Numbered from the stretch's first letter, positions 5,202 to 37,452 are shown. The stretch: DNA of 41,275 nucleotides from Chthoniobacterales bacterium (GCA_039936335.1 JBDTIQ010000116.1:1-41275), one strand, 5' to 3'. Notes: generated from the letters alone by a model not told the origin. Numbers and translations: made by a program.

Positions 5202-6764
5202 ATGTCCCATTCCACCGCGGAAGCTCGCGCGCTCCCGTCGCCTGCGCTCGCCGGAGTGGGGTCGCTCGGGATTTGCGGGCTCGCTTTTGGGTTTCTTTGG
5301 CTGGAGATCATCCACCAGCTCGGGAGCGAGTGGTCGCTCAATCCGCAATACGGCTATGGTTGGACGGTGCCGTTTTTGGCCGCGTTTCTTCTCTGGCAAC
5401 GCTGGTCGGCGCGACCGGACAGCAGTGCGCCGGATTTTCCTGGCCTAACGATTTGCCTGACGGTTATCGCCGCGCTGATTTTATTTCCGGCGCGCCTCGT
5501 TGCGGTCGCAAATCCCGACTGGCGTTTGCTCGATTGGATCATGGCGCTGGCGGTCGTCGCGATCTCGTTAGGCGGAATCTACCTTACCGGCGGCGTGGGC
5601 TGGCTCCGGCATTTTGCTTTCCCGATTTTGTTCTTCCTCGTCGCGGTGCCGTGGCCGGTGCAGCTCGAGCAACTTGTCGTGCAACACCTGATGCGTGCCG
5701 ACGCCGCGATCACGATCGGCCTGCTTAACTTTATCGGCACGCTCGCGCTCCAGCACGGCAACGTGATCGAACTCAGCACCGGCCAGGTCGGGATCGACGA
5801 CGCCTGCACCGGTGTGCGTTCTCTCCAGGCGACGTTCATGGTCGCGCTGTTTCTTGGCGCCTTTTATCGCATGACGCCGCGGCGACGCGTGCTCCTTGTC
5901 GTGGCCGGCGCGTGTCTCGCGTTTGTCTGCAATATCGGGCGCACGTTTTTGCTTTGCGAGGTCGCGGCGAACGACGGGATCGCGGCGATCCAGCGTTGGC
6001 ACGATCCGGCCGGGTTCACGATTCTCGGGATCTGTCTTTTCGTGCTCTGGGGGATGAGCCTCTGGTTGCAGCCAAAGGCGGCGCCATCCCGCCGGAGAAT
6101 TGCGGCGCCATTTCACCTGCGCAGCTTCGGCTGGCCGCTCGCCTTGCTCGTTTGGCTTTGCCTGACGGAAAGCGTTGTCGCGTTTTGGTATGCGCCCAAA
6201 TCCGCGGAAACTTCCCAGCCGTGGTCGGTGAGCTGGCCGACGAGCGAACCCGGTTATCAAACGCAACCCATCGCGGCCGCGGCCGAGGAATTGTTGCGCT
6301 ACAACGAAGGCGGCGCGGCGACCTGGCGCTCGGCCGATGATCGGCCTTGGTTGATGTATTCCTTCCACTGGCTGCCGGGGCGAACCGCGGCGCTCTTCGT
6401 GAAAAATCATCGGCCGGACATCTGTCTGCCGGCGAGCGGCCTAACGATGCAGAAAGAGAGCGGTGTCCATCTCGTGCGGGCGAATGGCGTTAGTCTGCCG
6501 ATTCGCGCCTATCGCTTCGACGACAACGGCCGGCCGCTCCACATTTTCTACTGCTACTGGGATGGTCGCTCCAGTTACGAGAATGACGCCGCGGCCGCGG
6601 CCGAAGACTGGACGGCGCGCGGTCGTTTACGCTCCGCTTGGGAAGGCAAACGCGAACGCGACGCACGGATGTTTGAGCTCGCGGTTTGGGGTCACGAAAA
6701 TGACGCGGAAGCGAACGCTGCGCTGCAACGCGAGCTGGAGAAAATCGTCACACCGTCATCCTGA
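5202..6764 (+). CDS. Exosortase fused to a C-terminal EpsI-family domain
   Basis: Polytopic N-terminal half with exosortase-type catalytic motifs DDACTGVRSL (Cys), NIGRTFLL (Arg) and WHDPAGF (His). The soluble C-terminal ~200 aa resembles EpsI. The stop TGA at 6762-6764 lies inside a palindromic element arm. Confidence 0.8.
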   Translation: MSHSTAEARALPSPALAGVGSLGICGLAFGFLWLEIIHQLGSEWSLNPQYGYGWTVPFLAAFLLWQRWSARPDSSAPDFPGLTICLTVIAALILFPARLVAVANPDWRLLDWIMALAVVAISLGGIYLTGGVGWLRHFAFPILFFLVAVPWPVQLEQLVVQHLMRADAAITIGLLNFIGTLALQHGNVIELSTGQVGIDDACTGVRSLQATFMVALFLGAFYRMTPRRRVLLVVAGACLAFVCNIGRTFLLCEVAANDGIAAIQRWHDPAGFTILGICLFVLWGMSLWLQPKAAPSRRRIAAPFHLRSFGWPLALLVWLCLTESVVAFWYAPKSAETSQPWSVSWPTSEPGYQTQPIAAAAEELLRYNEGGAATWRSADDRPWLMYSFHWLPGRTAALFVKNHRPDICLPASGLTMQKESGVHLVRANGVSLPIRAYRFDDNGRPLHIFYCYWDGRSSYENDAAAAAEDWTARGRLRSAWEGKRERDARMFELAVWGHENDAEANAALQRELEKIVTPSS

Positions 6765-6883
6765 GCGAAGCGCAGCGTAGTCGAAGGATCCCGCGGACTT
6801 TTCCTGAAGCACCGGCAGTAAATCGCCGCTTCTCAGTCGCACCACGAGATCGCTCGACTCCGCTGCGCTTCGCTCGGGATGAC
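6755..6883. repeat. Family-1 palindromic (MITE/REP-like) element, copy 1
   Basis: Left arm GTCATCCTGAGCGAAGCGCAGCGTAGTCGAAGGATC pairs with right arm GATCGCTCGACTCCGCTGCGCTTCGCTCGGGATGAC. It lies between the exosortase and uvrA genes. Confidence 0.9.
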
Positions 6884-6904
6884 ACTGTTTTTCGGTCGTT
6901 TGTA

Positions 6905-9900
6905 ATGCGGAGAGTTTGCGCTTTTCGCGCGAGGAAACGATTGTCGTCGGTGGCTTCCACCAACGGCAAGAAACCCTGCGAGACCGCGCCTCCGGACCCG
7001 CCTCAGGCGGGTTGCATCGCCATCCGCGGGGCGCGGCAGAACAATCTCAAGGGCTTCGATCTCGATCTCCCGCTGGGCGAATTAACCGTCGTCACTGGCC
7101 CGAGTGGGAGCGGTAAATCGTCGCTCGCCTTCGACACGATCTACGCGGAAGGCCAGCGCCGCTACGTCGAGACGTTTTCGCCTTACACACGGCAATTTCT
7201 CGACCGGATGGACAAGCCGCGGGTCGATGAAATTCGCGGTATCCCGCCCGCGATCGCGATCGCGCAATCGAACCCGGTGAAAAGCTCGCGCTCAACCGTC
7301 GGCACGATGACGGAGATCAACGACTACCTGAAACTGCTCATGCCGCGGGTGGCGCACGCCTTTTGTCCCAGCTGCGGCCGGGAGATTCGGCCGGAAAGCG
7401 CAAAGTCGATCGCGGATGAAATCTTCGCGAAATTCGGAACGCCTAACGCCATTTGTCATCCTGAGCGGAGTGGAGCGGAGCGGAACGGAGTCGAAGGACC
7501 TCACAAGCTTTCTGAGGACGTCGATAACCAAAGCGACGTCGAGCAACGCTTGCGGGGTCCTTCGACTGCGCTGCGCTCCGCTCGGGATGACAAGGAAAAG
7601 AGCGCTCCTCCTCAAACTGGCCTGATCACCTTTTGGATCACCGTCCCGCCGAAGACCGATCCCGCGGACTTCTTCGCCTTCCTCCAACAGCAAGGTTATC
7701 TGCGCATCTGGCTCGATGGCGAAGTCATCCGTGCCGACACCGACCTCAAAAACATCCGGCTCGGCGCGCGTGTCCAGGTCATCCAGGATCGCCTGACGAT
7801 CAACGAAGGATCGCGCGCGCGGCTCGTCGAATCGCTCGAGACTGCGCTCCGTTTCGGAAAAGATCGGATCAACTTCATCGACCTCGAAACGAAGGAGGCG
7901 CATCCATTTTCGACCGGCTGGCATTGCGCGCATTGCGATCTCGATATTCGCCCGCCGACGCCAGGTTTGTTCAGCTTTAACAATCCGTTAGGCGCGTGTC
8001 CGGAATGTCGCGGCTTCGGACGCACCATCGGCGTCGATTACAACCGCGCCATCCCGGATCGCTCCTACTCGATCGCTCAAGGCGCGGTCCGAGTTTTCCG
8101 CGGGCAGGAGATGGGCGAATCGCAAAAGGACCTGCTCCGCGCCTGCACCCGTGAGGAGATCGACGTCAATACGCCCTTCGAGGAATTGCCGCAGTGCGAT
8201 CAGGATTTCATCATCAATGGTGAGAAGGGCGTGGGCGAATACAGCGAGGAAGATTACGAAACCGATCGCTGGTATGGCGTGCGCGGATTCTTCAAATGGC
8301 TCGAGAGTAAGTCCTACAAAATGCACGTGCGCGTGCTCCTCAGCCGCTACCGCGCCTACACGAACTGCCCAAGCTGTCGCGGCGGACGTTTCCAGCCGGA
8401 GACGTTGAATTTTCGATTCGTCACTTCCTCTTCCAGGATGCCTGGAGAGCTGAGTTCCCGCGAAGCCGCGCCGGATGCTATTGCCTTCACGCTCCCGGAA
8501 TTTGCCGCGCTTCCGATTTCGGAAGCGCGCGATTTCCTAACTAACCTGACGCTTCCGCCTAACGATTCTGCTGCAGCCATGTTGTGCGCTGAGATCGTGA
8601 CGCGGCTCAATTATCTCTGCGAAGTCGGCGTCGGCTACCTCACGCTCGATCGCTCCACCCGCACCTTGAGCGGCGGCGAAGTGCAACGCGTTAACCTCAC
8701 CACTTGCCTCGGCGCCTCGCTCGTGAACACGCTTTTCGTGATGGACGAACCGAGCGTCGGCCTCCATCCGCGCGATGTCGGGAGACTCGTTAGGGTGATG
8801 CATAACCTGCGCGACAAAGGCAATACGTTGCTCGTCGTCGAGCACGAGGAAGCGATCATCCGCGCGGCGGATCATCTGCTCGATATTGGCCCCGGCCGCG
8901 GCGAGCAGGGGGGCGAGCTTGTCTTCCAAGGAACGCTGAACGAGATGCTGGGTAGCGCGCCCGTCCCGGGTGCTGGCGAAGGCGTCCCGCCTTCGCGAAC
9001 TTCCGAAAACACGAACGGTTCTCGCCGATCGAAACCGGATCGAAAAAGTTCGTTGCCGCGAGACGCGTCAACCAGCACGCGAGACGCGCGCGCTACCCCG
9101 GCATTCTCGCTCACCGCCGAATATCTATCCGGCCGTAAGAGCATCCCGATTCCGAAGGCACGCCGCGAATTCAAGCACACGCTCAAGATCAAAGGCGGAA
9201 GCGAACACAACCTCCAGAACCTCGACGTCGAGATTCCGTTAGGCATTTTCACTTGCGTGACCGGCGTTTCCGGTTCCGGAAAATCGACCCTCGTGCACGA
9301 CGTTCTCTACAAGAACCTCCTCCGAGAACGCGGCGAGCAGGGCGAGGAAGCCGGCGCCTGCAAGAGCGTGACCGGCGCGCATCGCGTCGGGCAGATTGTG
9401 ATGGTCGATCAATCGTCGCTCTCCCGCACCCCGCGCTCGACGCCGATTCTCTATCTCGGCGTTTACGACCGGGTGCGCGAGCTCTTCGCCGCGCTCCCGG
9501 AAGCGATGGCGCAGGGCCTGACGGCGAGCGCGTTTTCCTTCAACTCCGGGAGCGGCCGTTGCGAGCGTTGCGGCGGGACCGGCTTCGAAAAAGTAGAGAT
9601 GCAATTCCTGAGCGACCTCTACGTGCGCTGCGCCGAATGCGAGGGCAAACGCTTTCAGCCGCACGTGCTCCGGGTGAAGCTCGAAGGCCGCTCGATTCAC
9701 GACCTGCTCGAGCTGACGGTGAGCGAGGCGGTGGAATTTTTCGCGTCGTTAGGCGAAGCGGAGAAGCTGGCGCAACCTCTGGCGATCCTCGAGGAGGTCG
9801 GGCTCGGCTACGTGCGGCTCGGGCAGCCGCTGAACACGCTTTCCGGCGGCGAATCACAGCGGCTTAAGCTCGTTAGGCACCTGGCCGAGAGCGGTGCCGA

Positions 9901-12900
9901 CCGGACGCACCGCGGCGATCTTTTCATCTTCGACGAACCGACGACCGGATTGCATTTCGACGACGTCGCGCTGCTCGTTAGGCTCTTCCAGCGGCTCGTG
10001 GAAGCAGGAAACTCGATCGTCGTGATCGAGCACAATCTCGAGGTGATGAAATGCGCCGACTGGATCATCGATCTCGGGCCGGAAGGCGGAGAAGAAGGCG
10101 GGAAGCTGGTCGCCGCGGGCACGCCGGAGGATGTGGCGGAGGTCGAAGACTCGTTCACTGGCCGCTATCTGCGCAAGCTGCTGCTGCCGGGGAGCAGAGG
10201 CCGCTGGCCTGTCGTTCGCGGCGGCTCGCCGCGAACCGAGAACGGGCACTACGAAGATTTCGACGACGAACCCGCCTTGCGCGCCGCCGAAGAATCGCCC
10301 GGCCAGCGGCCTGCGCTCCGCGGAAAGAACTCTCACGCCATCTCAATCCACGGCGCGCGCGAGCACAACCTCAAAAACATCAGCCTAACGATCCCGCGCG
10401 ACCAGATGGTCGTCATCACCGGCCTGAGCGGCTCCGGGAAATCCACCGTCGCGTTCGATCTCCTCTTCGCGGAAGGCCAGCGTCGTTTTCTCGATAGCAT
10501 GTCGCCCTACGCGCGGCAGTTCGTCGATCAGCTCGAGAAGCCGGACGTCGACCTGATCGAGGGTCTCCCGCCGAGCGTCGCGATCGAGCAGCGGGTCACG
10601 CGCGGCGGCGGCAAATCGACGGTCGCCACTGTCACGGAAGTTTATCATTTTCTCCGGCTCCTCTTCGCGAAAACCGGCACGCAGTTTTGCCCGGATTGCG
10701 ATCTGCCGGTGGAAAAGCAGACGCTCGGCGCGATCGTTAGACAGGTAGAAGCGGCGGCGCGGCGTGGCCCGCTCAAGGTCCTCGCCCCGCTCGTGAAAGC
10801 GAGAAAAGGTTTCCACACCGAAGTCGCGCGCTGGGCCGAACGGCAGGGTTTTGACACGCTCTATGTCGATCGCCAGCTCATCCCACTGAAGCAGTTTCAA
10901 AAGCTTGAGCGTTTCAAGGAACACACGATCGATGCGGTGGTGGGCGCGATCGATGCAAAGCGGATCCTGAAAGCGCGCAACCTCGTGCAGCGCGCGCTCC
11001 AGATCGGCCGCGGAACGGCGCATCTGCTCGACGCGAAAAACCGACTCACGGTCATGAGCACGGAGATGAGTTGCTCGGGTTGCGGCCGCGCTTTCGAGGA
11101 GCTCGATCCGCGACTGTTTTCGTTTAACTCGCCGCACGGCTGGTGTGAGACCTGCAACGGCTTCGGTGAAATCTGGAACGAAAAAGTCCAGCGCGGCGAA
11201 GAAGAGACGGGCGACTCCGCGCTCGAAAACGAGCTCGCGGCAGAGCGGCAATTTGAGTCGATCGGTGAAGGTGAGGCGCAGCCGTGCCCCGATTGCCATG
11301 GCTCACGCCTGAACGCGGTCGCGCGCCACGTGCGGCTCCAAGGGAAAACGATCGACGAATTCAGCGCGCGCTCGGCTGCGGAAGCGCTCGCGCTCATCGG
11401 CAAATTGCGTTTCCGCGGCACGCCCAAGGTCATCGCCGCCGACCTTGTGCCGGAGATCGAACAGCGGCTCCGCTTCATGGAAAATGTTGGGCTCGGTTAT
11501 CTCGCGCTCGGGCGTTCCGCGAAGACGTTGAGCGGTGGCGAATCGCAGCGCATTCGCCTCGCGGCGCAGCTCGGCTCGAATCTGCGCGGCGTGCTTTACG
11601 TGCTCGATGAGCCGACGATCGGATTGCACGCGCGTGACAACGTGCGCCTCCTCGAAACGCTTGCGGCCTTACGCGAAAAAGGGAACTCGCTCGTGATCGT
11701 CGAGCACGACGAGGAGACGATGCGGCGCGCCGATCACATCATCGATCTTGGCCCCGGCGCGGGCGTGCATGGCGGCGAAGTCGTCGCGCAGGGAACGCTC
11801 CGCGACATCAAGGAGATCAGTGAATCGCAGACCGGTCGCTGCCTGCGCGAGCCGCTTTGTCATCCGGTGCGGAAAACGCGACGATCGTTAGGCGAAGTGG
11901 AGCAGTGGCTCGAAGTCGAGGACGCGCACGCGAATAATCTAAAGCACATCGACGCGAAGTTTCCGATCGGCCGACTCTCGGTCATCACGGGAATCTCCGG
12001 ATCGGGGAAGTCAACGTTGATGCGCTCGGTCCTGCTGCCGTCGGTGAAGGAAGCGCTGGGTAGCGCGCGCGTCTCGTCCGGCAGCTGCCGGAGCGAAGGC
12101 GTCTCGCCTTCGCGAACTTCCACCAGCGGCAAAAGTTCGTTGCCGCGAGACGCGTCAACCAGCACGCGAGACGCGCGCGCTACCCAGATCAAAGGAGCGG
12201 AGTTTCTGGAAGCGATCTACGAAGTCGATCAATCGCCGATAGGCAAAACCTCGCGCTCGACCCCGGCGACTTACATCAAGGTCTTCGACGAGATTCGGAA
12301 TTTGTTCGCGCAGTTGCCGGTCTCACGCGTCCGCGGTTACAGCGCGAGCCGGTTTTCGTTCAACACCGAAGGCGGCCGCTGCGAAACCTGCAGTGGCCAG
12401 GGCGTGCTCAAGCTCGAGATGAGCTTCCTCCCAAGCAGCTACATGCCTTGCGAAGATTGCGGCGGGAAACGCTACAACGCGCAGACCCTCGAAGTGCTCT
12501 ACCACGACAAAAGCATCGGCGACGTGATGGAAATGACGATCGCGCAGGCCGCGGAATTTTTCGCCGCGAACCAGAAGATCGCGCGCCCGCTCGGACTGCT
12601 CGTCGACACGGGTTTGGGTTACCTAAAACTCGGGCAGCCGAGCCCGACCTTGAGCGGCGGCGAAGCGCAACGGCTCAAGCTCGCGACCAAACTAACGCGC
12701 GGAGTCAGTCGCGCGACGAACGAGCGGATTCGCAAAATGCGGAAGCCGAAGTCGACGCTCTACCTTTTGGAAGAACCAACGATCGGGCTGCACATGGCCG
12801 ACGTGGAGTTGTTGCTGAACGTCCTCCATCGCCTCGTCGACGATGGAAACACGGTGATCGTGATCGAGCACAACCTGAGCGTGATTGCGGAAGCTGATTA

Positions 12901-13114
12901 CGTTGTCGATATCGGGCCGGAAGCGGGTTCGTTAGGCGGCGAAATCGTGGCCGCGGGCACGCCGGAGGAAGTCGCGAAAAGCCGAATGAGCCGGACCGCG
13001 CCGTTCCTGCGCGAAGTCCTCGCGCAAGGCCGCGAAGTGACCGGCACGACAGAAGCACCTGCCACAAAACCGCGCCGCAAGAAAGCGCGAGCCAAAGCCG
13101 TGTTGTCATCCTGA
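6905..13114 (+). CDS. uvrA: Tandem-duplicated UvrA-like ABC ATPase (two complete UvrA units in one 2069-aa ORF)
   Basis: Four Walker A motifs ([36 protein letters not shown]) and four LSGGE signatures. Cys4 zinc modules are present (CPSCG, CPECRG, CERCGG, CPDCD, CETCNG, CPDCHG, CETCSG). The second unit begins near 10320 ([15 protein letters not shown]). The ORF contains three in-frame palindromic-element insertions (see repeats). Confidence 0.9.
7455..7591. repeat. Family-1 palindromic element, copy 2, in frame inside uvrA-like ORF
   Basis: GTCATCCTGAGCGGAGTGGAGCGGAGCGGAACGGAGTCGAAGGACCTCACAAGC ... GCTTGCGGGGTCCTTCGACTGCGCTGCGCTCCGCTCGGGATGAC. It is translated as [20 protein letters not shown]...[13 protein letters not shown]. 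The paralogous second UvrA unit has no counterpart. Confidence 0.9.
8948..9098. repeat. Family-2 palindromic element, copy 1, in frame inside uvrA-like ORF
   Basis: Termini CTGGGTAGCGCGCCCGTCCCGG ... CGAGACGCGCGCGCTACCC. Internal hairpins are GCGAAGGCG/CGCCTTCGC. It is translated as [19 protein letters not shown]...[17 protein letters not shown]. Confidence 0.85.
12056..12187. repeat. Family-2 palindromic element, copy 2, in frame inside uvrA-like ORF
   Basis: Perfect 21-bp terminal inverted repeats CTGGGTAGCGCGCGCGTCTCG / CGAGACGCGCGCGCTACCCAG. Its 3' 55 nt (12131-12185) are identical to 9044-9098. It is translated as [43 protein letters not shown]. Confidence 0.9.
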
Positions 13115-13229
13115 GCGAAGCGCAGCGGAGTCGAAGGACCTCACAAGCGTCTGGCGACGTCGTTAGGCAAAACGGGCTCCGCACGACGCTTGCGAGATCC
13201 CGCACCGCGCTGCGCCGGTTCGGGATGAC
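13105..13229. repeat. Family-1 palindromic element, copy 3
   Basis: Same termini (GTCATCCTGAGCGAAGCGCAGCGGAGTCGAAGGACCTCACAAGC ... CGGGATGAC). Contains the uvrA stop codon at 13112-13114. Confidence 0.85.
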
Positions 13230-13310
13230 AACAGGTGAGGAGGGAAGTCATGGGAAAACCCAAAGCAGGACAGGCGAAGCCGCGCGCAACTAAAAGGCGG
13301 AGCAACCAGT

Positions 13311-13448
13311 GTCATCCTGAGCGAAGCGCAGCGAAGTCGAAGGATCCCGTTGGGCTGCCGTGAAGACCTAGCGCAATTTTCCCGCAGCGGAGCTTCACGA
13401 TCGCTCCACGGGATCCCTCGGCTGCGCTAACGCTCCGCTCGGGATGAC
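13311..13448. repeat. Family-1 palindromic element, copy 4
   Basis: GTCATCCTGAGCGAAGCGCAGCGAAGTCGAAGGATCC ... GGGATCCCTCGGCTGCGCTAACGCTCCGCTCGGGATGAC. It lies upstream of lgt. Confidence 0.9.
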
Positions 13449-13489
13449 GGCTTGCTGCGTTTCGCAAAATCGCGGAAGCTCGCGCCCCG

Positions 13490-15496: not shown

Positions 15497-15919
15497 ATGC
15501 GCCGCTATTCCAGCCGCACCGGCCTCACGACGCTCTCGGAGATTAATATCACTCCGCTGCTCGATCTCGCGTTCGTTCTCCTGATCATTTTCATGATCAC
15601 GACGCCGCTGATGGAGAACAGCAAGTCGCTCATCATTCCCTCGAGCGGGACGACGAACGCGCCGATCAATCCGGCCGCGGTGCAGATCCTCTCGATGGAT
15701 CGCAATGAGGTCGTTAGGCTGAATGAAGAGGTGATTGACGCGGCGTTGCTCCCGGCGCGGCTCGCGAGCTTGAAACAGGCCGATCCAAATGTCGCGGTGG
15801 TGATTCGGCCGGACCGCGAGCTGCCGGTGCAGAAACTGGTCAATCTCATGGACGCCCTGCAGCGCGCCGAGATCACGAAAGTCGGCATCGCGACGCAGGA
15901 AGAACAGCCGGGCAAATGA
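15497..15919 (+). CDS. tolR: ExbD/TolR-family protein
   Basis: 140 aa with INITPLLDLAFVLLIIFMITTP, the characteristic TM segment with Asp. The stop overlaps the next gene by 4 bp. Confidence 0.85.
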   Translation: MRRYSSRTGLTTLSEINITPLLDLAFVLLIIFMITTPLMENSKSLIIPSSGTTNAPINPAAVQILSMDRNEVVRLNEEVIDAALLPARLASLKQADPNVAVVIRPDRELPVQKLVNLMDALQRAEITKVGIATQEEQPGK

Positions 15920-16917
15920 CCCGCGACGCGCGTTTCTGGCGCAACGTCACGATCGTTGGGCTGGTTCACGTCGTGGTTCTGCTCGGGCTGCTCTGGTGGA
16001 GCCGATCGGCGAAGCCGGAGCCGAAGAACATCGTCTGGATGGAAGGCGGTGCGGGCGGAAGCCAGGCCGCAGCCGCGACCGAAAGCGCCGCGGAAACTCC
16101 CGAGCCGCCGCCCGAAGAAACGCCGGTCGCCACGCCTAACGAACCAGCCGAAGAAGCGACGCCGGAAGTTCTCCCGACCGCGAAGAGCGAGATAGAAATT
16201 CCAGTTAGCCCAACGGCCACCGCGACGCCTACGCCAACTCCGACGCCAACAGAAACTCCAACGCCGAAGCCGACAGAAACTCCGACGCCTACGCCCAAGC
16301 GAACTCCGAAACCCACGCCTAAGCCAACGCCGAAACACACTCCGAGAGAGAAGCCTTCACCGACTCCAAGAAAGAAGGCAACGCCGAAGAAAAAGAAGGC
16401 GACCCCGAAACCAAAACCGACGCCTGACGAGGAAGAAGAAAAGGAAACCGCCAAGAAAAAAGCGATCGCCAAAGCCGCGCTCGAAAAGAAGAAGGCGAGC
16501 GAGAGCGACGAGGATTCTTCCCGTGAAAAATCAGCGAAGAAAGCGACCGCCGCGGGGGACAGCGACACCGGCGACACGAAAGGCGAAGGCGGCTCCGGCG
16601 GTCACGGTAAAGGCTCCGGCGGCGCGTCGGAATTCGGCTGGTATGGCGGGATGTTGCACGACCGGTTCTACAGCGAATGGGTCCAGCCGACTTCCGTCGT
16701 GCAGAGCGCAAAGCTTTCAGTTCTCCTGCGCATCCGGATTCAAAAAGACGGGCGCATTTCCGACTACTCGATTGCGAAATCCTCCGGCAATCCGGTGGTC
16801 GACGACTCCGTCAAAGCCGCCGCGGCACGCGTGAAACAGGTCGATCCGTTGCCGGCGGGGTTGGGCGACGAATATTATGACGTGAACATCAACTTCGAAT
16901 TAAGTTCCGGACAATGA
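15916..16917 (+). CDS. TolA/TonB-like energy-transducer protein
   Basis: N-terminal TM, a long Pro/Thr/Lys/Glu-rich linker, and a C-terminal TonB_C-like domain (WYGGMLHDRFYSEW...VNINFEL). ATGA overlaps occur at both ends (15916-15919 and 16914-16917). Confidence 0.75.
   Translation: MTRDARFWRNVTIVGLVHVVVLLGLLWWSRSAKPEPKNIVWMEGGAGGSQAAAATESAAETPEPPPEETPVATPNEPAEEATPEVLPTAKSEIEIPVSPTATATPTPTPTPTETPTPKPTETPTPTPKRTPKPTPKPTPKHTPREKPSPTPRKKATPKKKKATPKPKPTPDEEEEKETAKKKAIAKAALEKKKASESDEDSSREKSAKKATAAGDSDTGDTKGEGGSGGHGKGSGGASEFGWYGGMLHDRFYSEWVQPTSVVQSAKLSVLLRIRIQKDGRISDYSIAKSSGNPVVDDSVKAAAARVKQVDPLPAGLGDEYYDVNINFELSSGQ
16213..16344 (+). repeat. Coding low-complexity Thr-Pro(-Lys/Glu) tandem repeats in the TolA/TonB-like linker
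   Basis: Translates as TATATPTPTPTPTETPTPKPTETPTPTPKRTPKPTPKPTPKHTP. Confidence 0.8.
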
Positions 16918-19714: not shown

Positions 19715-19818
19715 CGTAGCACAGCCGTCTCGGCTGCGGGGCGACCCCGCATCTTGCCCGGTCATTGAAACAGCGGGCGAGACGCCCGCTGGCCCACAGG
19801 CAAGATGCCTGTGCTACG
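19715..19818. repeat. Family-3 palindromic element, copy A
   Basis: CGTAGCACAG...GCATCTTGCCCGG ... CCCACAGGCAAGATGCCTGTGCTACG. It lies between the ligase start and the stop of the upstream gene. Confidence 0.8.
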
Positions 19819-20425
19819 GCGCATAGCGGCGCGGCTCCAGTTTCGGTGGTCGTTTACCCTTTCGCGTCGCGCCAGCTACGGGGATGTAACTAAGTTCGCT
19901 ACGATCGACCGCGCAGCGCAGGAGTAACCCACCGCGGCTCATGTCGCCGCGCCCGACGAAGTCCGCCGGGAAACGCAACCGCTCCTGCAGGATCTTGAGC
20001 ATCACGCCGACATACTTGCCGGTCGCGATGCTGCCGAGCAGCACCACGTCGCACGTCGGCGATAGTTGCCTAACGAGCCTGTGCAGGTCCCGTTCGAGCG
20101 GTTTACGATAACGCGGTTCGTCGTCCGCGATGTCGACTTCGGCAAACTCGCGCAGGTCCGCCAGCGTGACAGTGGTCGTCGCCGGCACGAGGCCGCGGGT
20201 CGGCGTGATCACGAGCACCCGTTCGAAATCGGTCGCGAACGTATTCGCGTAAGCCAGTTTTCCGCGAAAATAGAGACCGCTGAGAAAGGTAAAAACTTCG
20301 CCTAACGACACCGCCTCGCCCGTGCGCAGACGCTGCGCGAGCGCGAACTGCGCGCGATCATTCAGGAGCATCTGCGCGCGGCGGCCGCCGGCGTAGGCGG
20401 GCGAGAGGAGAAAGGTCCGCGGCAT
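19814..20425 (-). CDS. Conserved-looking hypothetical protein, immediately upstream of the ligase
   Basis: ORF 19814..20494. The likely start is ATG at 20425 (MPRTFLLSPAYAGG). I recognise no family motifs. Its TAG stop lies in the terminus of a palindromic element. Confidence 0.5.
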   Translation of the reverse strand: MPRTFLLSPAYAGGRRAQMLLNDRAQFALAQRLRTGEAVSLGEVFTFLSGLYFRGKLAYANTFATDFERVLVITPTRGLVPATTTVTLADLREFAEVDIADDEPRYRKPLERDLHRLVRQLSPTCDVVLLGSIATGKYVGVMLKILQERLRFPADFVGRGDMSRGGLLLRCAVDRSELSYIPVAGATRKGKRPPKLEPRRYAP

Positions 20426-21780: not shown

Positions 21781-23202
21781 ATGGAACCGACCGTTCTGAT
21801 TGTCGACGACGAGAAGCACACCCGCGATGGGTTGCGGACATTGTTAGGCGACAACTACGACACCTACGTCGCCGCCGATGTCGCGAGCGCCCTCGAGGTG
21901 CTGACGCGCGATGAGATCGACGTGCTCATTACCGATCTCCGGCTCGGCGGCGAGGACGGAATGACGCTGATCGAGCGCGCGCTGAAACTCCCGCACCCGC
22001 CGGTTTGCATCATGATGACGGCCTACGGTTCCGTCGATACCGCGGTCGAGGCGATGAAACGCGGCGCCTACGATTTCGTGACGAAGCCGCTCAACCTCGA
22101 CAAGGTGGAAATGCTCGTGGCCCGCGCGCTCGGCAGCCGCCGCCTCGAACAGGAAAATCGGCAGCTCCGCCAGCAAGTGGATGAACGTTTCGCGCTCGAA
22201 AATATTCTCGGTGAATCCGAAACGTTGCGCGAAGTACTCGACACGATTCGGCAGGTGGCGCCGTCGTCGGCCAACGTCCTGATCGAAGGCGAGAGCGGGA
22301 CCGGCAAGGAGCTTGCAGCCCAGGCGGTCCATAATCTGAGCCGGCGGCACAAGGGCAAATTCGTTACGGTGCATTGCGCGGCGCTCTCGCCGCAGTTGCT
22401 CGAGAGCGAACTCTTCGGACACGAGCGCGGCGCATTCACGGGCGCGCACGAGCGCCGGATCGGGCGGTTCGAGCAGGCGAACGGCGGCACGGTTTTCCTC
22501 GACGAAATCGGCGAGATCGACGCGAGCACACAGGTGAAATTGCTCCGCGTGATCAGCGAAGAGCGTGCCTTCGAGCGCGTCGGCGGATCGCAAATGCTGC
22601 GCGCCGATGTGCGCCTGATCGCGGCGACGAACAGAAATCTCGAGCAGCTGGTGAGCGAAGGAAAATTTCGCGACGATCTCTATTTTCGCCTCAATGTCGT
22701 GAAGATCACGATGCCGCCGTTGCGCACGCGGAAGGAAGATATTCCACTTCTCGTTAGGTCGTTTTTGCGGCATTTCTCGAAGGTGAACGAACGGCCGGTG
22801 CTCGAGATCACCGCTGACGCAATGAACACGCTGCTCACTTACGATTGGCCGGGAAACGTGCGGGAGTTGCGCACGGCGATCGAGCACGGCGTGGTCATGG
22901 CGACCGGGACGAAGGTGACTTTGCGCGACTTGCCGGCAGCGGTCCGCGCGGCCAGTGGCGCGCCGCTCCCAGCCGGGATCACGCGCACGAAGGCCTTCGA
23001 TGAAAAGGCCAGCCCGCTCGATTTGGCCGCGTCTGAGAAACGCCTGATCATGCAGGCGCTCGCTGCGACGAACGGCAACATCACGGCCGCGGCGAAGAAG
23101 CTGGGCATCAGCCGGCGCACGTTGCATCGTAAGATCAACGAAATGGATGAGGACAAATCCGAAGCTCGAAATCCGAAATCCGAAACAAATTCGAATGACT
23201 GA
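21781..23202 (+). CDS. Sigma-54-dependent response regulator (NtrC family)
   Basis: REC domain (LIVDDEK...DVLITDLRL), AAA+ domain (GESGTGKE, GAFTGA, ESELFGHE), and a C-terminal Fis-type HTH (NITAAAKKLGISRRTLHRKI). The last ~15 codons and the TGA stop lie in a palindromic element. Confidence 0.9.
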   Translation: MEPTVLIVDDEKHTRDGLRTLLGDNYDTYVAADVASALEVLTRDEIDVLITDLRLGGEDGMTLIERALKLPHPPVCIMMTAYGSVDTAVEAMKRGAYDFVTKPLNLDKVEMLVARALGSRRLEQENRQLRQQVDERFALENILGESETLREVLDTIRQVAPSSANVLIEGESGTGKELAAQAVHNLSRRHKGKFVTVHCAALSPQLLESELFGHERGAFTGAHERRIGRFEQANGGTVFLDEIGEIDASTQVKLLRVISEERAFERVGGSQMLRADVRLIAATNRNLEQLVSEGKFRDDLYFRLNVVKITMPPLRTRKEDIPLLVRSFLRHFSKVNERPVLEITADAMNTLLTYDWPGNVRELRTAIEHGVVMATGTKVTLRDLPAAVRAASGAPLPAGITRTKAFDEKASPLDLAASEKRLIMQALAATNGNITAAAKKLGISRRTLHRKINEMDEDKSEARNPKSETNSND

Positions 23203-23314
23203 AATTCAAAATTCGAAACTGCCGTGCGCCGGCCATACCCTAGTGTCGAGTTTCGATATTCCAATTTCGAGCTTCGGATTTGTTTCGGATTTCGATATTC
23301 GGATTTCGGATTTT
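23155..23314. repeat. Family-4 long imperfect palindrome built from AATCCGAAA / TTTCGGATT modules
   Basis: Left half AAATCCGAAGCTCGAAATCCGAAATCCGAAACAAATTCGAA... mirrors right half ...TTCGAGCTTCGGATTTGTTTCGGATTTCGATATTCGGATTTCGGATTTT. Confidence 0.8.
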
Positions 23315-31600: not shown

Positions 31601-31638
31601 AGGAGTTTCGGATTTCGGTCTTCGAGTTTCGGATTTTT
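31601..31638. repeat. Solo half-copy of the family-4 module
   Basis: AGGAGTTTCGGATTTCGGTCTTCGAGTTTCGGATTTTT in the rpoA leader. Confidence 0.55.
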
Positions 31639-31680
31639 CAACCATCCGCCGCTTCGTCTCCGTGGTCCGTATTTTAAGTT

Positions 31681-35260: not shown

Positions 35261-35381
35261 CGTAGCACGGGCATCCGACCTGTGGGGCCTGCGGGCGTCT
35301 CGCCCGGTGCCTCTGCCGCGACTACTCTGGTCGACCGGGCAAGATGCCCGGTTGCCCCACAGGCAGGATGCCTGTGCTACG
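35261..35381. repeat. Family-3 palindromic element, copy B
   Basis: CGTAGCACGGGCATCCGACCTGTGGGGC ... GCCCCACAGGCAGGATGCCTGTGCTACG (about 28-bp inverted termini). It lies between the convergent helicase and peptidase genes. Confidence 0.85.
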
Positions 35382-37452
35382 GCTTCGTCCAACGATCGAC
35401 CCAGTCGTTCACGGTTTTATACCAGAGCTCGCTGTTCTGCGGCTTCAGAACCCAGTGGCCTTCATCGGGAAAATAGAGCATCTCCGACGGCACGCCGAGG
35501 CGCTGGAGAGTCGTGAAGAGATCGAACCCCTGCGAAACATCGAGCCGGTAATCGAGCTGCCCGTGCACGACTAGCGTCGGCGTTTTAAAATTCTCCGCCG
35601 AGAGCGCGGGTGACCACTTGCGATACATCTCCCGGTTTTTCCAAGGCGGCCCGCCGAATTCCTTCTCTGGAAACCAGAGTTCTTCCGTCGTGCCGTAAGC
35701 GGATTCGGTGTTGAAAATGCCGTCGTGCGTCACGAGACATTTGAAGCGGTCGGTGTGCCCGAGAATCCAATCGATCATGTAACCGCCGTAGCTCGCGCCG
35801 AGCGCGGCTTCGCGATTTTTGTCGATGAACGGGAAGGCCTTCTCTGCGTAATCGAGCCCTTGCATGAGATCGTGAAACGGCGTGCCGCCCCATTGGTTGA
35901 TCACGCCTTCGGTAAACTTCTGGCCATAACCGGTCGAGCCGCGCGGATTCACCATCACCACGACGTAGCCGTTCGCGGCAAAGAGTTCCGGGTTCCAGCG
36001 GAACGACCAATCATCGCCCCACGCGCCCTCCGGCCCGCCGTGGATAAGGAATTTCACGGGATACTTTTTGCTCGCGTCGAAATCGGGCGGCTTTACGAGA
36101 AAGCCCTGAATCTCCACGCCGTCGGAAGCCTTGAACTGGAACGGCTCGAGTGGCTGCAGCGCCACTTGCGCGAGCGTTGCGTCATTCACGCGCGTGACGG
36201 CGACGGGCTCGCTCTTTGCTGACACGTCGAGGCGCCAGATTTCGTTAGGCGCCTTGATCGAGTTGCGGCTGAAGTAGAGAAACTTCCCAGCCGGTCCGAA
36301 GACGAGGTCGTCCGCGTGCAGGCGCGTGAGTTCGTTAGGCTGCTTTGCGTTCAGAGGCAGCTGATAGATCGGCGCCTCGCCGTGATCTTCCGCGCTGAAG
36401 TAGATCGACTGCGAATCGTTCGCCCAAACAAAGCTGCCGACCCAGCGATCGAAATCCTGCGTTGCGATCCGAATCTTTCCCGAGCTCCGATCGTAGATCG
36501 CGAGGGTAAAGCGATCGCTTTCGTAACCGGCTCGCGCCTGCGAGAGCCACGCGATCGACTTGCTATCCGGAGAGTAGCGTGGCGTCGAGTCGCTGCCGGG
36601 ACTGGTCGAAATTTTCTTCGGCGCACTGCCAGCGAGCGGGACGAGAAAGATGTCGTTGTTCGTGCTCGTCGCGCCGACTTTGTCGGTGTTGCAGGTGTAG
36701 GCGAGTTGCTGGCCGTCGGGTGAAATGGCATACATGTCCGAGCCGCCTAACGAGAAAGGCGGAACATCGTGATCGCCCGGGGTGAGGTCGCGCGGTGTTG
36801 CGGGCGACACGCCGGCCTCTACGCCGACGACAAAGAGATGGCTGCGCTTGAAATCCGTGTACTCCGTCCAATGCCGGAAAAGCAGGTGCTTGAAGATCTT
36901 CGCCTTCACCTTGCTCTTCTTCAGTTCCTCGTCGCGCTGCTGGTTGCAGGCGTCGTCTTTGCAGTCAGGATAAACGCGCGAGATGAAGACGATATTCTTC
37001 CCATCGGGCGACCAGATCGCGCCGTCCGCGCCGGTTGAGAGCGAGGTCACTTGGTGCGCCGTCCCATTTAATTTCCCGGCGGCCGGATCGAAGTCGACCA
37101 TCCAGACCTGAGTGGGATCAGTCGCTTTCGAAGTGAAGATCAATCGCTGGCCGTCAGGTGAAAATCGTGGGCGTTCCTCCTCGTTAGGCGAATCGTTCAG
37201 GCGGCGCGCCTCGCCACCTTCGGCCGGGACGATCCAGAGATGTGATTTCCGCGTGTTTTCCGCCAGCCTTACCTCCGTCGCCGAGAAGACGACCCATTTG
37301 CCGTCAGGCGACGGGATTGGTTCGCCGAGACGTTTCAGTTTCATCATCGTCTCGAAGTCGAACGGCTTTTTGCCGGCGCCTTGTTCGTTAGGCGCAGCGG
37401 AGAGTGGCAACGCGGAAGCGATGAGCGCGAGGGTCATAAGGAGTTTTTTCAT
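35377..37452 (-). CDS. S9-family serine peptidase (beta-propeller plus prolyl-oligopeptidase/DPP-type alpha/beta hydrolase domain)
   Basis: Signal peptide, PDG-type propeller blades, and nucleophile elbow LGASYGGYM. The catalytic region ends ...YFPDEGHWV. The TAG stop lies in the terminus of a palindromic element. Confidence 0.85.
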   Translation of the reverse strand: MKKLLMTLALIASALPLSAAPNEQGAGKKPFDFETMMKLKRLGEPIPSPDGKWVVFSATEVRLAENTRKSHLWIVPAEGGEARRLNDSPNEEERPRFSPDGQRLIFTSKATDPTQVWMVDFDPAAGKLNGTAHQVTSLSTGADGAIWSPDGKNIVFISRVYPDCKDDACNQQRDEELKKSKVKAKIFKHLLFRHWTEYTDFKRSHLFVVGVEAGVSPATPRDLTPGDHDVPPFSLGGSDMYAISPDGQQLAYTCNTDKVGATSTNNDIFLVPLAGSAPKKISTSPGSDSTPRYSPDSKSIAWLSQARAGYESDRFTLAIYDRSSGKIRIATQDFDRWVGSFVWANDSQSIYFSAEDHGEAPIYQLPLNAKQPNELTRLHADDLVFGPAGKFLYFSRNSIKAPNEIWRLDVSAKSEPVAVTRVNDATLAQVALQPLEPFQFKASDGVEIQGFLVKPPDFDASKKYPVKFLIHGGPEGAWGDDWSFRWNPELFAANGYVVVMVNPRGSTGYGQKFTEGVINQWGGTPFHDLMQGLDYAEKAFPFIDKNREAALGASYGGYMIDWILGHTDRFKCLVTHDGIFNTESAYGTTEELWFPEKEFGGPPWKNREMYRKWSPALSAENFKTPTLVVHGQLDYRLDVSQGFDLFTTLQRLGVPSEMLYFPDEGHWVLKPQNSELWYKTVNDWVDRWTKP

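Follow-up and report, generated by a model that had tools for sequence, protein, structure and literature searches.

Palindromic repeats of REPIN type and a second repeat family lie in frame in loops and linkers of a tandem uvrA gene from Chthoniobacterales

Repetitive extragenic palindromic sequences (REPs) tagged with GTAG or CGTC were found within open reading frames (ORFs) by Di Nocera, De Gregorio and Rocco (2013; BMC Genomics 14:522; PMC3733652). UvrABC, DnaE2, tRNA synthetases and other repair and replication proteins were enriched among the REP-decorated proteins, the highest count came from a verrucomicrobium, and both uvrA genes of Opitutus terrae were interrupted by double REP inserts. 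The inserts were proposed to sit in loops or linkers, and the association of REPs with REP-associated tyrosine transposases (RAYTs) was termed the 'REPtron' (PMC3733652). REP doublets forming hairpins (REPINs) and their transposases have been described as REPIN-RAYT systems (Bertels and Rainey, 2011, PMC3116915; Bertels et al., 2017, PMC5581495). Rickettsia palindromic elements (RPEs; Ogata et al., 2000; cited here after PMC3733652) are palindromic selfish repeats that reside in frame in protein genes and are carried as extra surface peptides. Here we analysed a 41,275-nucleotide stretch of DNA from a Chthoniobacterales bacterium (GCA_039936335.1, JBDTIQ010000116.1; hereafter the window), in which a double-length uvrA gene carries three long palindromic elements in frame.

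The gene occupies positions 6905..13114 on the plus strand as a single uninterrupted ORF of 2069 codons (2069 aa), with UvrA unit 1 at 7010..10183 (aa ~36–1093) and UvrA unit 2 at 10319..13033 (aa ~1139–2043), also on the plus strand. Our reading, to which we give a probability of roughly 85%, is that selfish hairpin-forming mobile repeats, of REPIN type and related, landed in loops and linkers of UvrA, are translated through, and drift as tolerated passengers. Intragenic REP residence is already known in this phylum and gene family (PMC3733652), and the double UvrA is a further example. An initial annotation of this DNA had implied a more unusual case, and in this it went too far, since both intragenic GTAG REPs and REP termini that supply stop codons had been reported (PMC3733652).

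Insert 1 (7453..7593, plus strand; translated as aa 184–229) was delimited with nhmmer and belongs to family 1, a palindromic element with termini YGTCATCC...GGATGACR. It lies in the first loop of the UvrB-binding domain of unit 1, and the arms of its inverted repeat, placed by a repeat finder at 7473–7511 and 7545–7583, are 85% complementary. Insert 2 (8948..9098, plus strand; aa 682–732) is a GTAG-headed, REPIN-like element of family 2 (CTGGGTAGCGCG...CGCGCTACCC) with 75% complementary arms at 8950–9002 and 9046–9098. It falls in the linker that joins ATPase module I to module II of unit 1, at a break in the alignment with PDB 9gxk (chain residues 602–608). The second family-2 copy, insert 3 (12056..12187, plus strand; aa 1718–1761), was detected by both the repeat finder and nhmmer. 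It follows the Walker A helix in a loop of the second ATPase module of unit 2, at the junction of 2R6F residues 689 and 690, and the repeat finder also paired it with insert 2 through arms 8948–9002 and 12133–12187. The arms of the family-2 inserts measure 53–55 nt and are 75–76% complementary, and their termini read CTGGGTAGCGCG... and ...CGCGCTACCCAG, so that the conserved GTAG tetranucleotide is present at the element end. Over 55 nt the right arms of the two copies in uvrA (9044–9098 and 12131–12185) do not differ at all (100% identity), whereas the left arms reach only ~80% and an indel of 30 nt separates the centres. The identical right arms suggest gene conversion between the in-gene copies or a recent common source. 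A further family-1 copy ends the gene (13103..13232, plus strand): its first bases, TTG TCA TCC TGA, are the last three uvrA codons and the stop, the TGA lying at 13112–13114. The three in-frame palindromes, their placement at loops or linkers and a fourth copy that provides the stop codon had all been proposed in the initial annotation, and each of these points stood.

Single-strand folding gave −89.5, −81.7 and −89.3 kcal/mol for inserts 1, 2 and 3. The z-scores of these hairpins against dinucleotide shuffles were −10.8, −6.4 and −10.1, compared with −0.1 and +0.5 for two control stretches of uvrA. The insert peptides contain 87% disorder-promoting and 10% hydrophobic residues (vs 30% hydrophobic in the remaining protein), and we infer that they are disordered. 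In an AlphaFold2 model of unit 1 the inserts are coil with predicted local distance difference test (pLDDT) scores of 25–32, values that carry little weight given that 58% of the model lies below 50. That model was built from a low-diversity alignment of 28 sequences, had a mean pLDDT of 48 and a predicted template modelling score of 0.37, and was not used for a fold search. Judged from the breaks in the alignments with solved UvrA structures, the inserts lie at loop or linker positions.

The best database relatives of the protein are all double UvrA proteins of 1825–2069 aa with 73–85% identity, labelled Chthoniobacterales or Verrucomicrobiota. The gene order TPR – exosortase – uvrA – lgt – exbB – exbD is conserved in the three relatives examined with their DNA (L001–L003), which are therefore orthologues. 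An alignment of the query with 119 orthologues (120 sequences in total) was made with MAFFT, and occupancy thresholds were set above the lengths of the empty alleles. Only three large length-variable regions appeared, and these are the three insert sites. Site 1 was occupied in 47 of 120 sequences (empty in 73, where it spans ~8 aa), site 2 in 90 (empty in 30) and site 3 in 56 (empty in 64); 23 sequences carried all three inserts and 14 carried none. The empty alleles hold short native loops that are conserved within clades, such as LDRK... or LKKERGKQRELFS... at site 3, indicating that the empty state is ancestral and that the elements are insertions. The initial annotation had suggested this comparison and had noted that homologous segments at the same positions in relatives would speak against insertion; the insert-free orthologues keep short native loops instead. 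Its description of each element as extra residues is right in that these are true insertions, absent altogether from 14 orthologues, but not for site 3 in full: codon alignment with empty alleles places the element there in exchange for a native loop of ~10 aa (DRKKKDEAK-type), not as a plain addition.

Differing repeat sub-families occupy one and the same site across orthologues, and two or more of them are dispersed repeats in related genomes in their own right. Presence and absence fit the gene tree poorly, requiring 23–34 changes compared with 35–37 for shuffled states. The three loops are places of recurrent landing or survival and not the outcome of one old event. The same data bear on whether the inserts are an artefact, arising either from metagenome assembly that collapsed repeats into genes or from decay of a pseudogene. 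Although the window and most orthologues do come from metagenome-assembled contigs, more than 100 orthologues from independent assemblies, megabase-scale contigs included, have the same sites filled in frame, and the remainder of uvrA is under strong purifying selection with all catalytic motifs intact. We find an artefact hardly credible.

All three inserts are common to the query and its closest orthologue, L003, and were therefore inherited from a common ancestor. Between these two genes the inserts show an identity of 0.688 at codon positions 1+2 and of 0.691 at position 3, whereas the rest of uvrA shows 0.927 and 0.664, respectively. The equal values in the inserts, which are also close to the third-position value of the remaining gene, indicate drift without constraint at the amino-acid level: the host protein is under strong purifying selection and the insert codons are neutral. 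This result is at odds with the idea that the inserts are adaptive, in which the extra peptides, or the disruption itself, would modulate UvrA by way of mutator-like states, as the literature has suggested for REP-decorated repair proteins, or by way of new interaction surfaces. An adaptive role would suit the recurrence of repair and replication genes among the hosts, both here (uvrA, dnaE, dnaX and recG) and in the earlier survey (PMC3733652), and the location of insert 1 within the UvrB-binding domain. It would also suit the finding that 4 of 113 randomly matched family-2 loci (at least 113 loci exist) were uvrA, but this enrichment is biased because the search pattern was derived from a uvrA-resident copy. 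Besides the absence of constraint on the codons, the 14 insert-free orthologues, the patchy occupancy over the tree and the residence of unrelated sub-families at the same site all argue against adaptation, which we consider improbable.

A function at the level of nucleic acid was also weighed. The hairpins could be retained because they regulate, whether by pausing translation for folding, by affecting mRNA stability or by binding gyrase or another protein. The strength of the hairpins (−82 to −90 kcal/mol, z of −6 to −11) is in keeping with this, as is the position of all three inserts at domain or module boundaries, and in L003 the orthologous inserts, at a nucleotide divergence of ~31%, retain folding energies of −55 to −80 kcal/mol. 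However, the sites are empty in many orthologues, and hairpin strength is inherent in recently inserted palindromes. Regulation by hairpins is, moreover, compatible with a passenger origin and does not exclude it. As the reason for retention we regard it as unlikely, if somewhat less so than adaptation of the protein.

Within the window family 2 is represented by two copies only, both in uvrA, and its wider distribution was obtained from other genomes. The family-2 terminus GGTAGCGCGCGCGTCTCGCG occurs at at least 113 loci in a collection of species-representative genomes; among the matches listed, nearly all are metagenome-assembled genomes of Chthoniobacterales, Udaeobacter, 'Spartobacteria' or unclassified Verrucomicrobia. 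A search with nhmmer over 808 kb of these loci yielded 123 copies, which were called coding or non-coding with a codon-usage frame model that had been trained on syntenic genes and validated on the window. Among the 85 classifiable copies, 80 were non-coding (~94%) and five lay in frame within genes (~6%), the hosts being uvrA, the DNA polymerase III alpha subunit (two loci, one with two inserts), DnaX and AlaS. The DnaE-type alpha subunit of locus L110 carries family-2 inserts at 7086–7218 and at a second site near the C-terminus, and the latter site is filled as well in the alpha subunit of L013 (6230–6345). The inserts in these two genes are oriented opposite to their hosts. In DnaX (L046:1630–1739) the element sits in the variable linker. 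The label 'intergenic-type' that the initial annotation had given to the repeats was thus borne out inside the window for family 1, with six full intergenic copies, and for family 2 only by way of other genomes.

The reading frames of the dispersed copies proved informative. Frame a is open in 75–78% of 59 non-coding family-2 copies, frame b in 63–68% and frame c in 2–5%, the last being nearly always closed because of the TAG in GTAG. The length is divisible by three in 22% of these copies, and ~12–17% would be compatible with an ORF. All genic copies, by comparison, have lengths divisible by three, and both orientations are present among them. This pattern fits read-through combined with a selection filter and speaks against ribosomal bypass or RNA processing, by which the inserts would stay untranslated in the manner of yeast mitochondrial 'byp' elements or T4 gene 60. 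Very stable hairpins that join the element ends are a feature such a process could use. Against it, the in-gene copies are without exception open and divisible by three, a filter expected only if ribosomes read through, and no take-off and landing codon pairs were noted at the inserts. We judge bypass to be very improbable.

The link between family 2 and a transposase came from the alaS ORF of locus L052, in which a 166-aa segment is bracketed by two family-2 half-elements. This segment matches NCBIfam NF047646 (REP-associated tyrosine transposase) over positions 4–145 of 146 (E = 1.2e-19; 70.6 bits, with an equivalog cut-off of 80) and also Pfam Y1_Tnp. A metagenome scan with the L052 RAYT gave 14 loci with 52–80% identity, and in 11 of the 11 metagenome loci having both flanks the gene is enclosed by inverted, GTAG-headed arms of the family-2 type; arms on both sides are likewise present in L052 and in L131–L134. 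The protein database holds 184 relatives, mostly of ~217 aa and named 'REP element-mobilizing transposase RayT'. Where it stands free on long contigs, the RAYT ORF has its start within the left arm (M...GSARVSRVGDGVAPSRTS...) and terminates where the right arm ends (...RRDAETSTRDACAT, then the stop codon), which means that both tails of the transposase, N- and C-terminal, are encoded by the arms. In uvrA, DnaE, DnaX and AlaS the elements are read in the frame of these tails. A family-2 element effectively unites the two coding ends of a RAYT gene, and one of its frames reads through because the arms encode the RAYT tails. We accordingly class family 2, from its termini and arms, as a GTAG-headed REP/REPIN-type element of a lineage-specific RAYT. 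Mobilisation by the RAYT would proceed by single-strand cleavage at GTAG, by analogy with the E. coli RAYT work on single-stranded DNA summarised in PMC3733652.

In 13 of 15 RAYT loci the whole cassette of arm, RAYT and arm (~200 aa) shares one stop-free ORF with a host gene. The hosts are AlaS at three loci (L052:1142–1748, L118 and L122, all at the same position), RecG at six (L120, L121, L124, L125, L128 and L129), ThrS at three (L126, L127 and L130) and MetH at one (L123). The position of the cassette is constant within each host gene, and the HUH and Tyr motifs are intact in every in-frame cassette except that of L052. The notion that RAYT cassettes are always in-frame fusions was rejected: most database calls are stand-alone proteins of ~217 aa, and other arrangements exist. 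In L131–L133 (4001–4651) the RAYT is a separate ORF of ~217 aa between two tandem T2SSE ATPase genes, with overlapping stop and start codons, and in L134 (2934–7486) a RAYT ORF divides metH into two genes, of 356 aa and 939 aa, again with overlapping stop and start codons. Separately, we observed on a complete chromosome (OZ244652.1; L026:1–2025) that a RAYT-like protein, more distantly related, has its C-terminal part joined in frame to the C-terminal half of CarB; the linker sequence is different, the carbamoyl-phosphate synthase large subunit was identified by eye from its motifs, and the locus is cut at its 5' end.

We found no description of in-frame RAYT residence in housekeeping genes in the RAYT and REPIN papers searched. 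That the cassettes share a continuous ORF with their hosts is observed; we propose that they may be expressed as fusion proteins. A bolder extension, which we put forward tentatively and at somewhat less than even odds, is that the REP-RAYT system of this lineage lives largely inside coding sequence, with the transposase made either as one of the internal modules of its host protein or from within the host mRNA, and that the uvrA inserts are internally deleted derivatives of such cassettes. If true, this would be an undescribed lifestyle for a bacterial transposase, an intein-like residence in essential genes that involves no splicing and protects against loss. With intact RAYT genes nested in frame in essential genes, the long-term vertical persistence of REPIN-RAYT systems would then have a testable explanation, and the view taken of these elements could change.

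Family 1 differs in its distribution. There are seven full copies in the window by nhmmer, of which six are intergenic, usually just past the 3' end of a gene. One copy lies between the exosortase gene and uvrA (6752..6886, plus strand) and ends 19 nt before the ATG at 6905. It gives the exosortase (EpsH-type) gene 5202..6764 its last codons and stop (TCA TCC TGA, 6756–6764), and the exosortase gene and uvrA have these final three codons in common. The second copy in the spacer between uvrA and lgt lies at 13309..13450 (plus strand; nhmmer). In the 808 kb examined for family 2, 14 of 15 family-1 copies are non-coding and the sole genic copy is that at uvrA site 1. CGTC-tagged REPs, a candidate class for family 1, are recognised by a terminal CGTC tetranucleotide together with a small stem-loop unit of 8–9 bp. 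The family-1 termini (YGTCATCC) carry CGTC at four of 14 ends and TGTC at nine, with one degenerate, and the unit is a palindrome of 130–140 nt. A search of ~0.9 Mb of related DNA for a family-1 transposase gave no arm pairs flanking an ORF. A family-1 peptide profile run against the protein database recovered spurious ORFs of 36–84 aa only and not the uvrA orthologues either, and hence gives no measure of the number of genuine proteins with family 1; a literature text search for the family-1 terminus returned a single unrelated paper.

Put together, these observations suggest the following course of events. Three copies of selfish hairpin-forming repeats would have landed in surface loops and linkers of UvrA, family 2 being moved by RAYT-mediated single-strand transposition and family 1, to which insert 1 and the stop-codon copy belong, being a second palindromic repeat. 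The joined arms of ~130–150 nt would usually leave frame a open and so add a hydrophilic, probably disordered peptide. Selection would then act as a filter, sparing insertions that keep to a multiple of three in length, contain no stop codon and fall in a permissive loop; this filter explains why the same three loops are refilled by different sub-families. After fixation the insert codons drift neutrally, as passengers and not as functional domains. Inteins were also considered and rejected, since the uvrA inserts are far too small and have no splicing motifs.

Several points weigh against insertion by mobile repeats followed by neutral drift. The window contains no RAYT gene, and no transposase could be tied to family 1 in the DNA searched. 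Codon-level alignment of filled and empty alleles revealed no target-site duplication, as would be looked for with a miniature inverted-repeat transposable element, and no clean pair of empty and filled sites was seen; simple transposition would not predict the replacement of the native loop at site 3. That very strong hairpins persist in the in-gene copies after divergence may point to selection on the structure of DNA or RNA and not to neutrality alone. The gain and loss parsimony used a simple neighbour-joining tree and crude length thresholds that miss many inserts of 42–44 aa. With the AlphaFold2 model poor overall, the structural placement is one suggested by alignment, and we infer full-length translation from ORF integrity alone, in more than 100 independent assemblies.

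The architecture of the host protein was established from motifs, profiles and solved structures. The protein contains four Walker A motifs (G.SGSGKS, at aa 65, 787, 1173 and 1696), four LSGGE signatures, four Walker B motifs and twelve CxxC motifs, such that each unit comprises two ABC ATPase modules with two each of Walker A, signature and Walker B. Each half scored 952–1054 bits against the NCBIfam UvrA models, above the cut-off of TIGR00630 (729.8) and below that of NF001503 (1147). The tandem UvrA-UvrA fusion and the counts of Walker A and LSGGE motifs that had been described initially were confirmed. The true start may be GTG 6950, given that the database gene call is 2054 aa long and that the orthologue consensus opens ...ASTNGKK. 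Unit 1 aligned with residues 25–960 of the class I structure 9gxk, with interruptions solely at inserts 1 and 2, and has the complete class I architecture of two ABC ATPase modules, a UvrB-binding domain and an insertion/DNA-binding domain (PF17755, aa 378–464). Its UvrB-binding domain (PF17760, UvrA_inter; aa 253–324) matched over profile positions 33–105 alone, its N-terminal portion being interrupted by insert 1.

Unit 2 was delimited by Pfam, by a BLASTP comparison with unit 1 (31–39% identity) and by alignment with 2R6F residues 17–302, 421–689 and 690–960. It matches PF17760 over the full profile (aa 1272–1375) and lacks the insertion/DNA-binding domain of ~120 aa, as there was no PF17755 match in Pfam and 2R6F residues ~303–420 were unmatched. 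Thus, the two halves of the single-chain UvrA are structurally asymmetric. The initial annotation had described two complete UvrA-like units, which is accurate for unit 1 and not for unit 2, and it had both units lacking the UvrB-binding insertion, which is wrong, since PF17760 is found in both and both align over that region of solved class I structures. A UvrA of double length occurs in Chlamydiae too, members of the same Planctomycetes-Verrucomicrobia-Chlamydiae superphylum. Against the chlamydial double-UvrA equivalog NF001885 the full protein scored 1115.7 bits (cut-off 3054) and is therefore not that equivalog; the best of the stretches listed, like the hits that either half gave by itself, fell in the first half of the profile (positions ~575–937 of 1809). 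The gene product is a single-chain 'pseudo-dimer' UvrA of two diverged units, and this is the norm in Chthoniobacterales.

Other repeats occur elsewhere in the window, where a scan at Rfam gathering thresholds found no family. A third palindromic family with a GTAG head (CGTAGCACAGCCGTCTCGGCTGC... / ...CAGGCAGGATGCCTGTGCTACG) is present in intergenic spacers at 19715–19820 and 35333–35383 and is probably another REP family. A fourth repeat, at 23152–23314 and 31605–31639, consists of GTTTCGGATTTCG-type units in inverted arrangement. Tandem repeats of 12–18 nt (ACNCCNACNCC-type) lie at 16215–16389 within ORF 15916..16917, the TonB-like gene by synteny with L001–L003, and probably encode a proline-rich spacer.

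The more than 100 orthologues with or without inserts allow the process by which selfish palindromic DNA joins a large repair protein to be followed. They reveal loops of UvrA that tolerate 45–50 extra residues, and the added residues evolve neutrally. For family 2 there is a simple reason why the repeats can be translated, namely that they are the coding ends of their own transposase gene. In practical terms, such inserts lengthen the annotated proteins of soil Verrucomicrobia and make them harder to interpret, and they flag permissive sites in UvrA, DnaE, DnaX, AlaRS, RecG and ThrRS.

As a protein, each unit resembles class I UvrA such as that of B. stearothermophilus (2R6F) in its two-ATPase, zinc-module architecture, although unit 2 differs in having no insertion domain, and the double length recalls the ~1800-aa chlamydial double UvrA of NF001885. 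As to the inserts, the parallel with RPEs drawn in the initial annotation is apt for the phenomenon, the in-frame residence of palindromic selfish repeats, and extends to behaviour only: the elements are probably not relatives of RPEs, family 2 being a GTAG REP/REPIN with a cognate RAYT whereas RPEs are without an identified transposase, and the host lineage is a verrucomicrobium that lives free in soil, unlike the obligate intracellular alphaproteobacterium that harbours RPEs. The elements also resemble REPIN-RAYT systems. In both, a long hairpin is built from two inverted REP-like arms, most of the dispersed copies are extragenic, and the same arms border a RAYT gene that has HUH and Tyr motifs. 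In contrast to classical REPINs, which are described as extragenic, ~6% of the family-2 copies lie within genes and would be translated there, and at either end the RAYT coding sequence extends into the arms. Comparable, too, are the intragenic GTAG REPs described earlier (PMC3733652), those of O. terrae included, likewise GTAG-headed palindromes in frame and associated with a RAYT, and often dimers in that work. Here, however, a tandem double UvrA of another order (Chthoniobacterales) is the host, with long elements of 130–150 nt (44–51 aa). Beyond the O. terrae case, we add this tandem-UvrA host, the pattern of recurrent hotspots filled by several sub-families over 120 orthologues, a measure of neutral codon drift, statistics on reading frames, and the identification of the arms as the coding ends of a RAYT gene.

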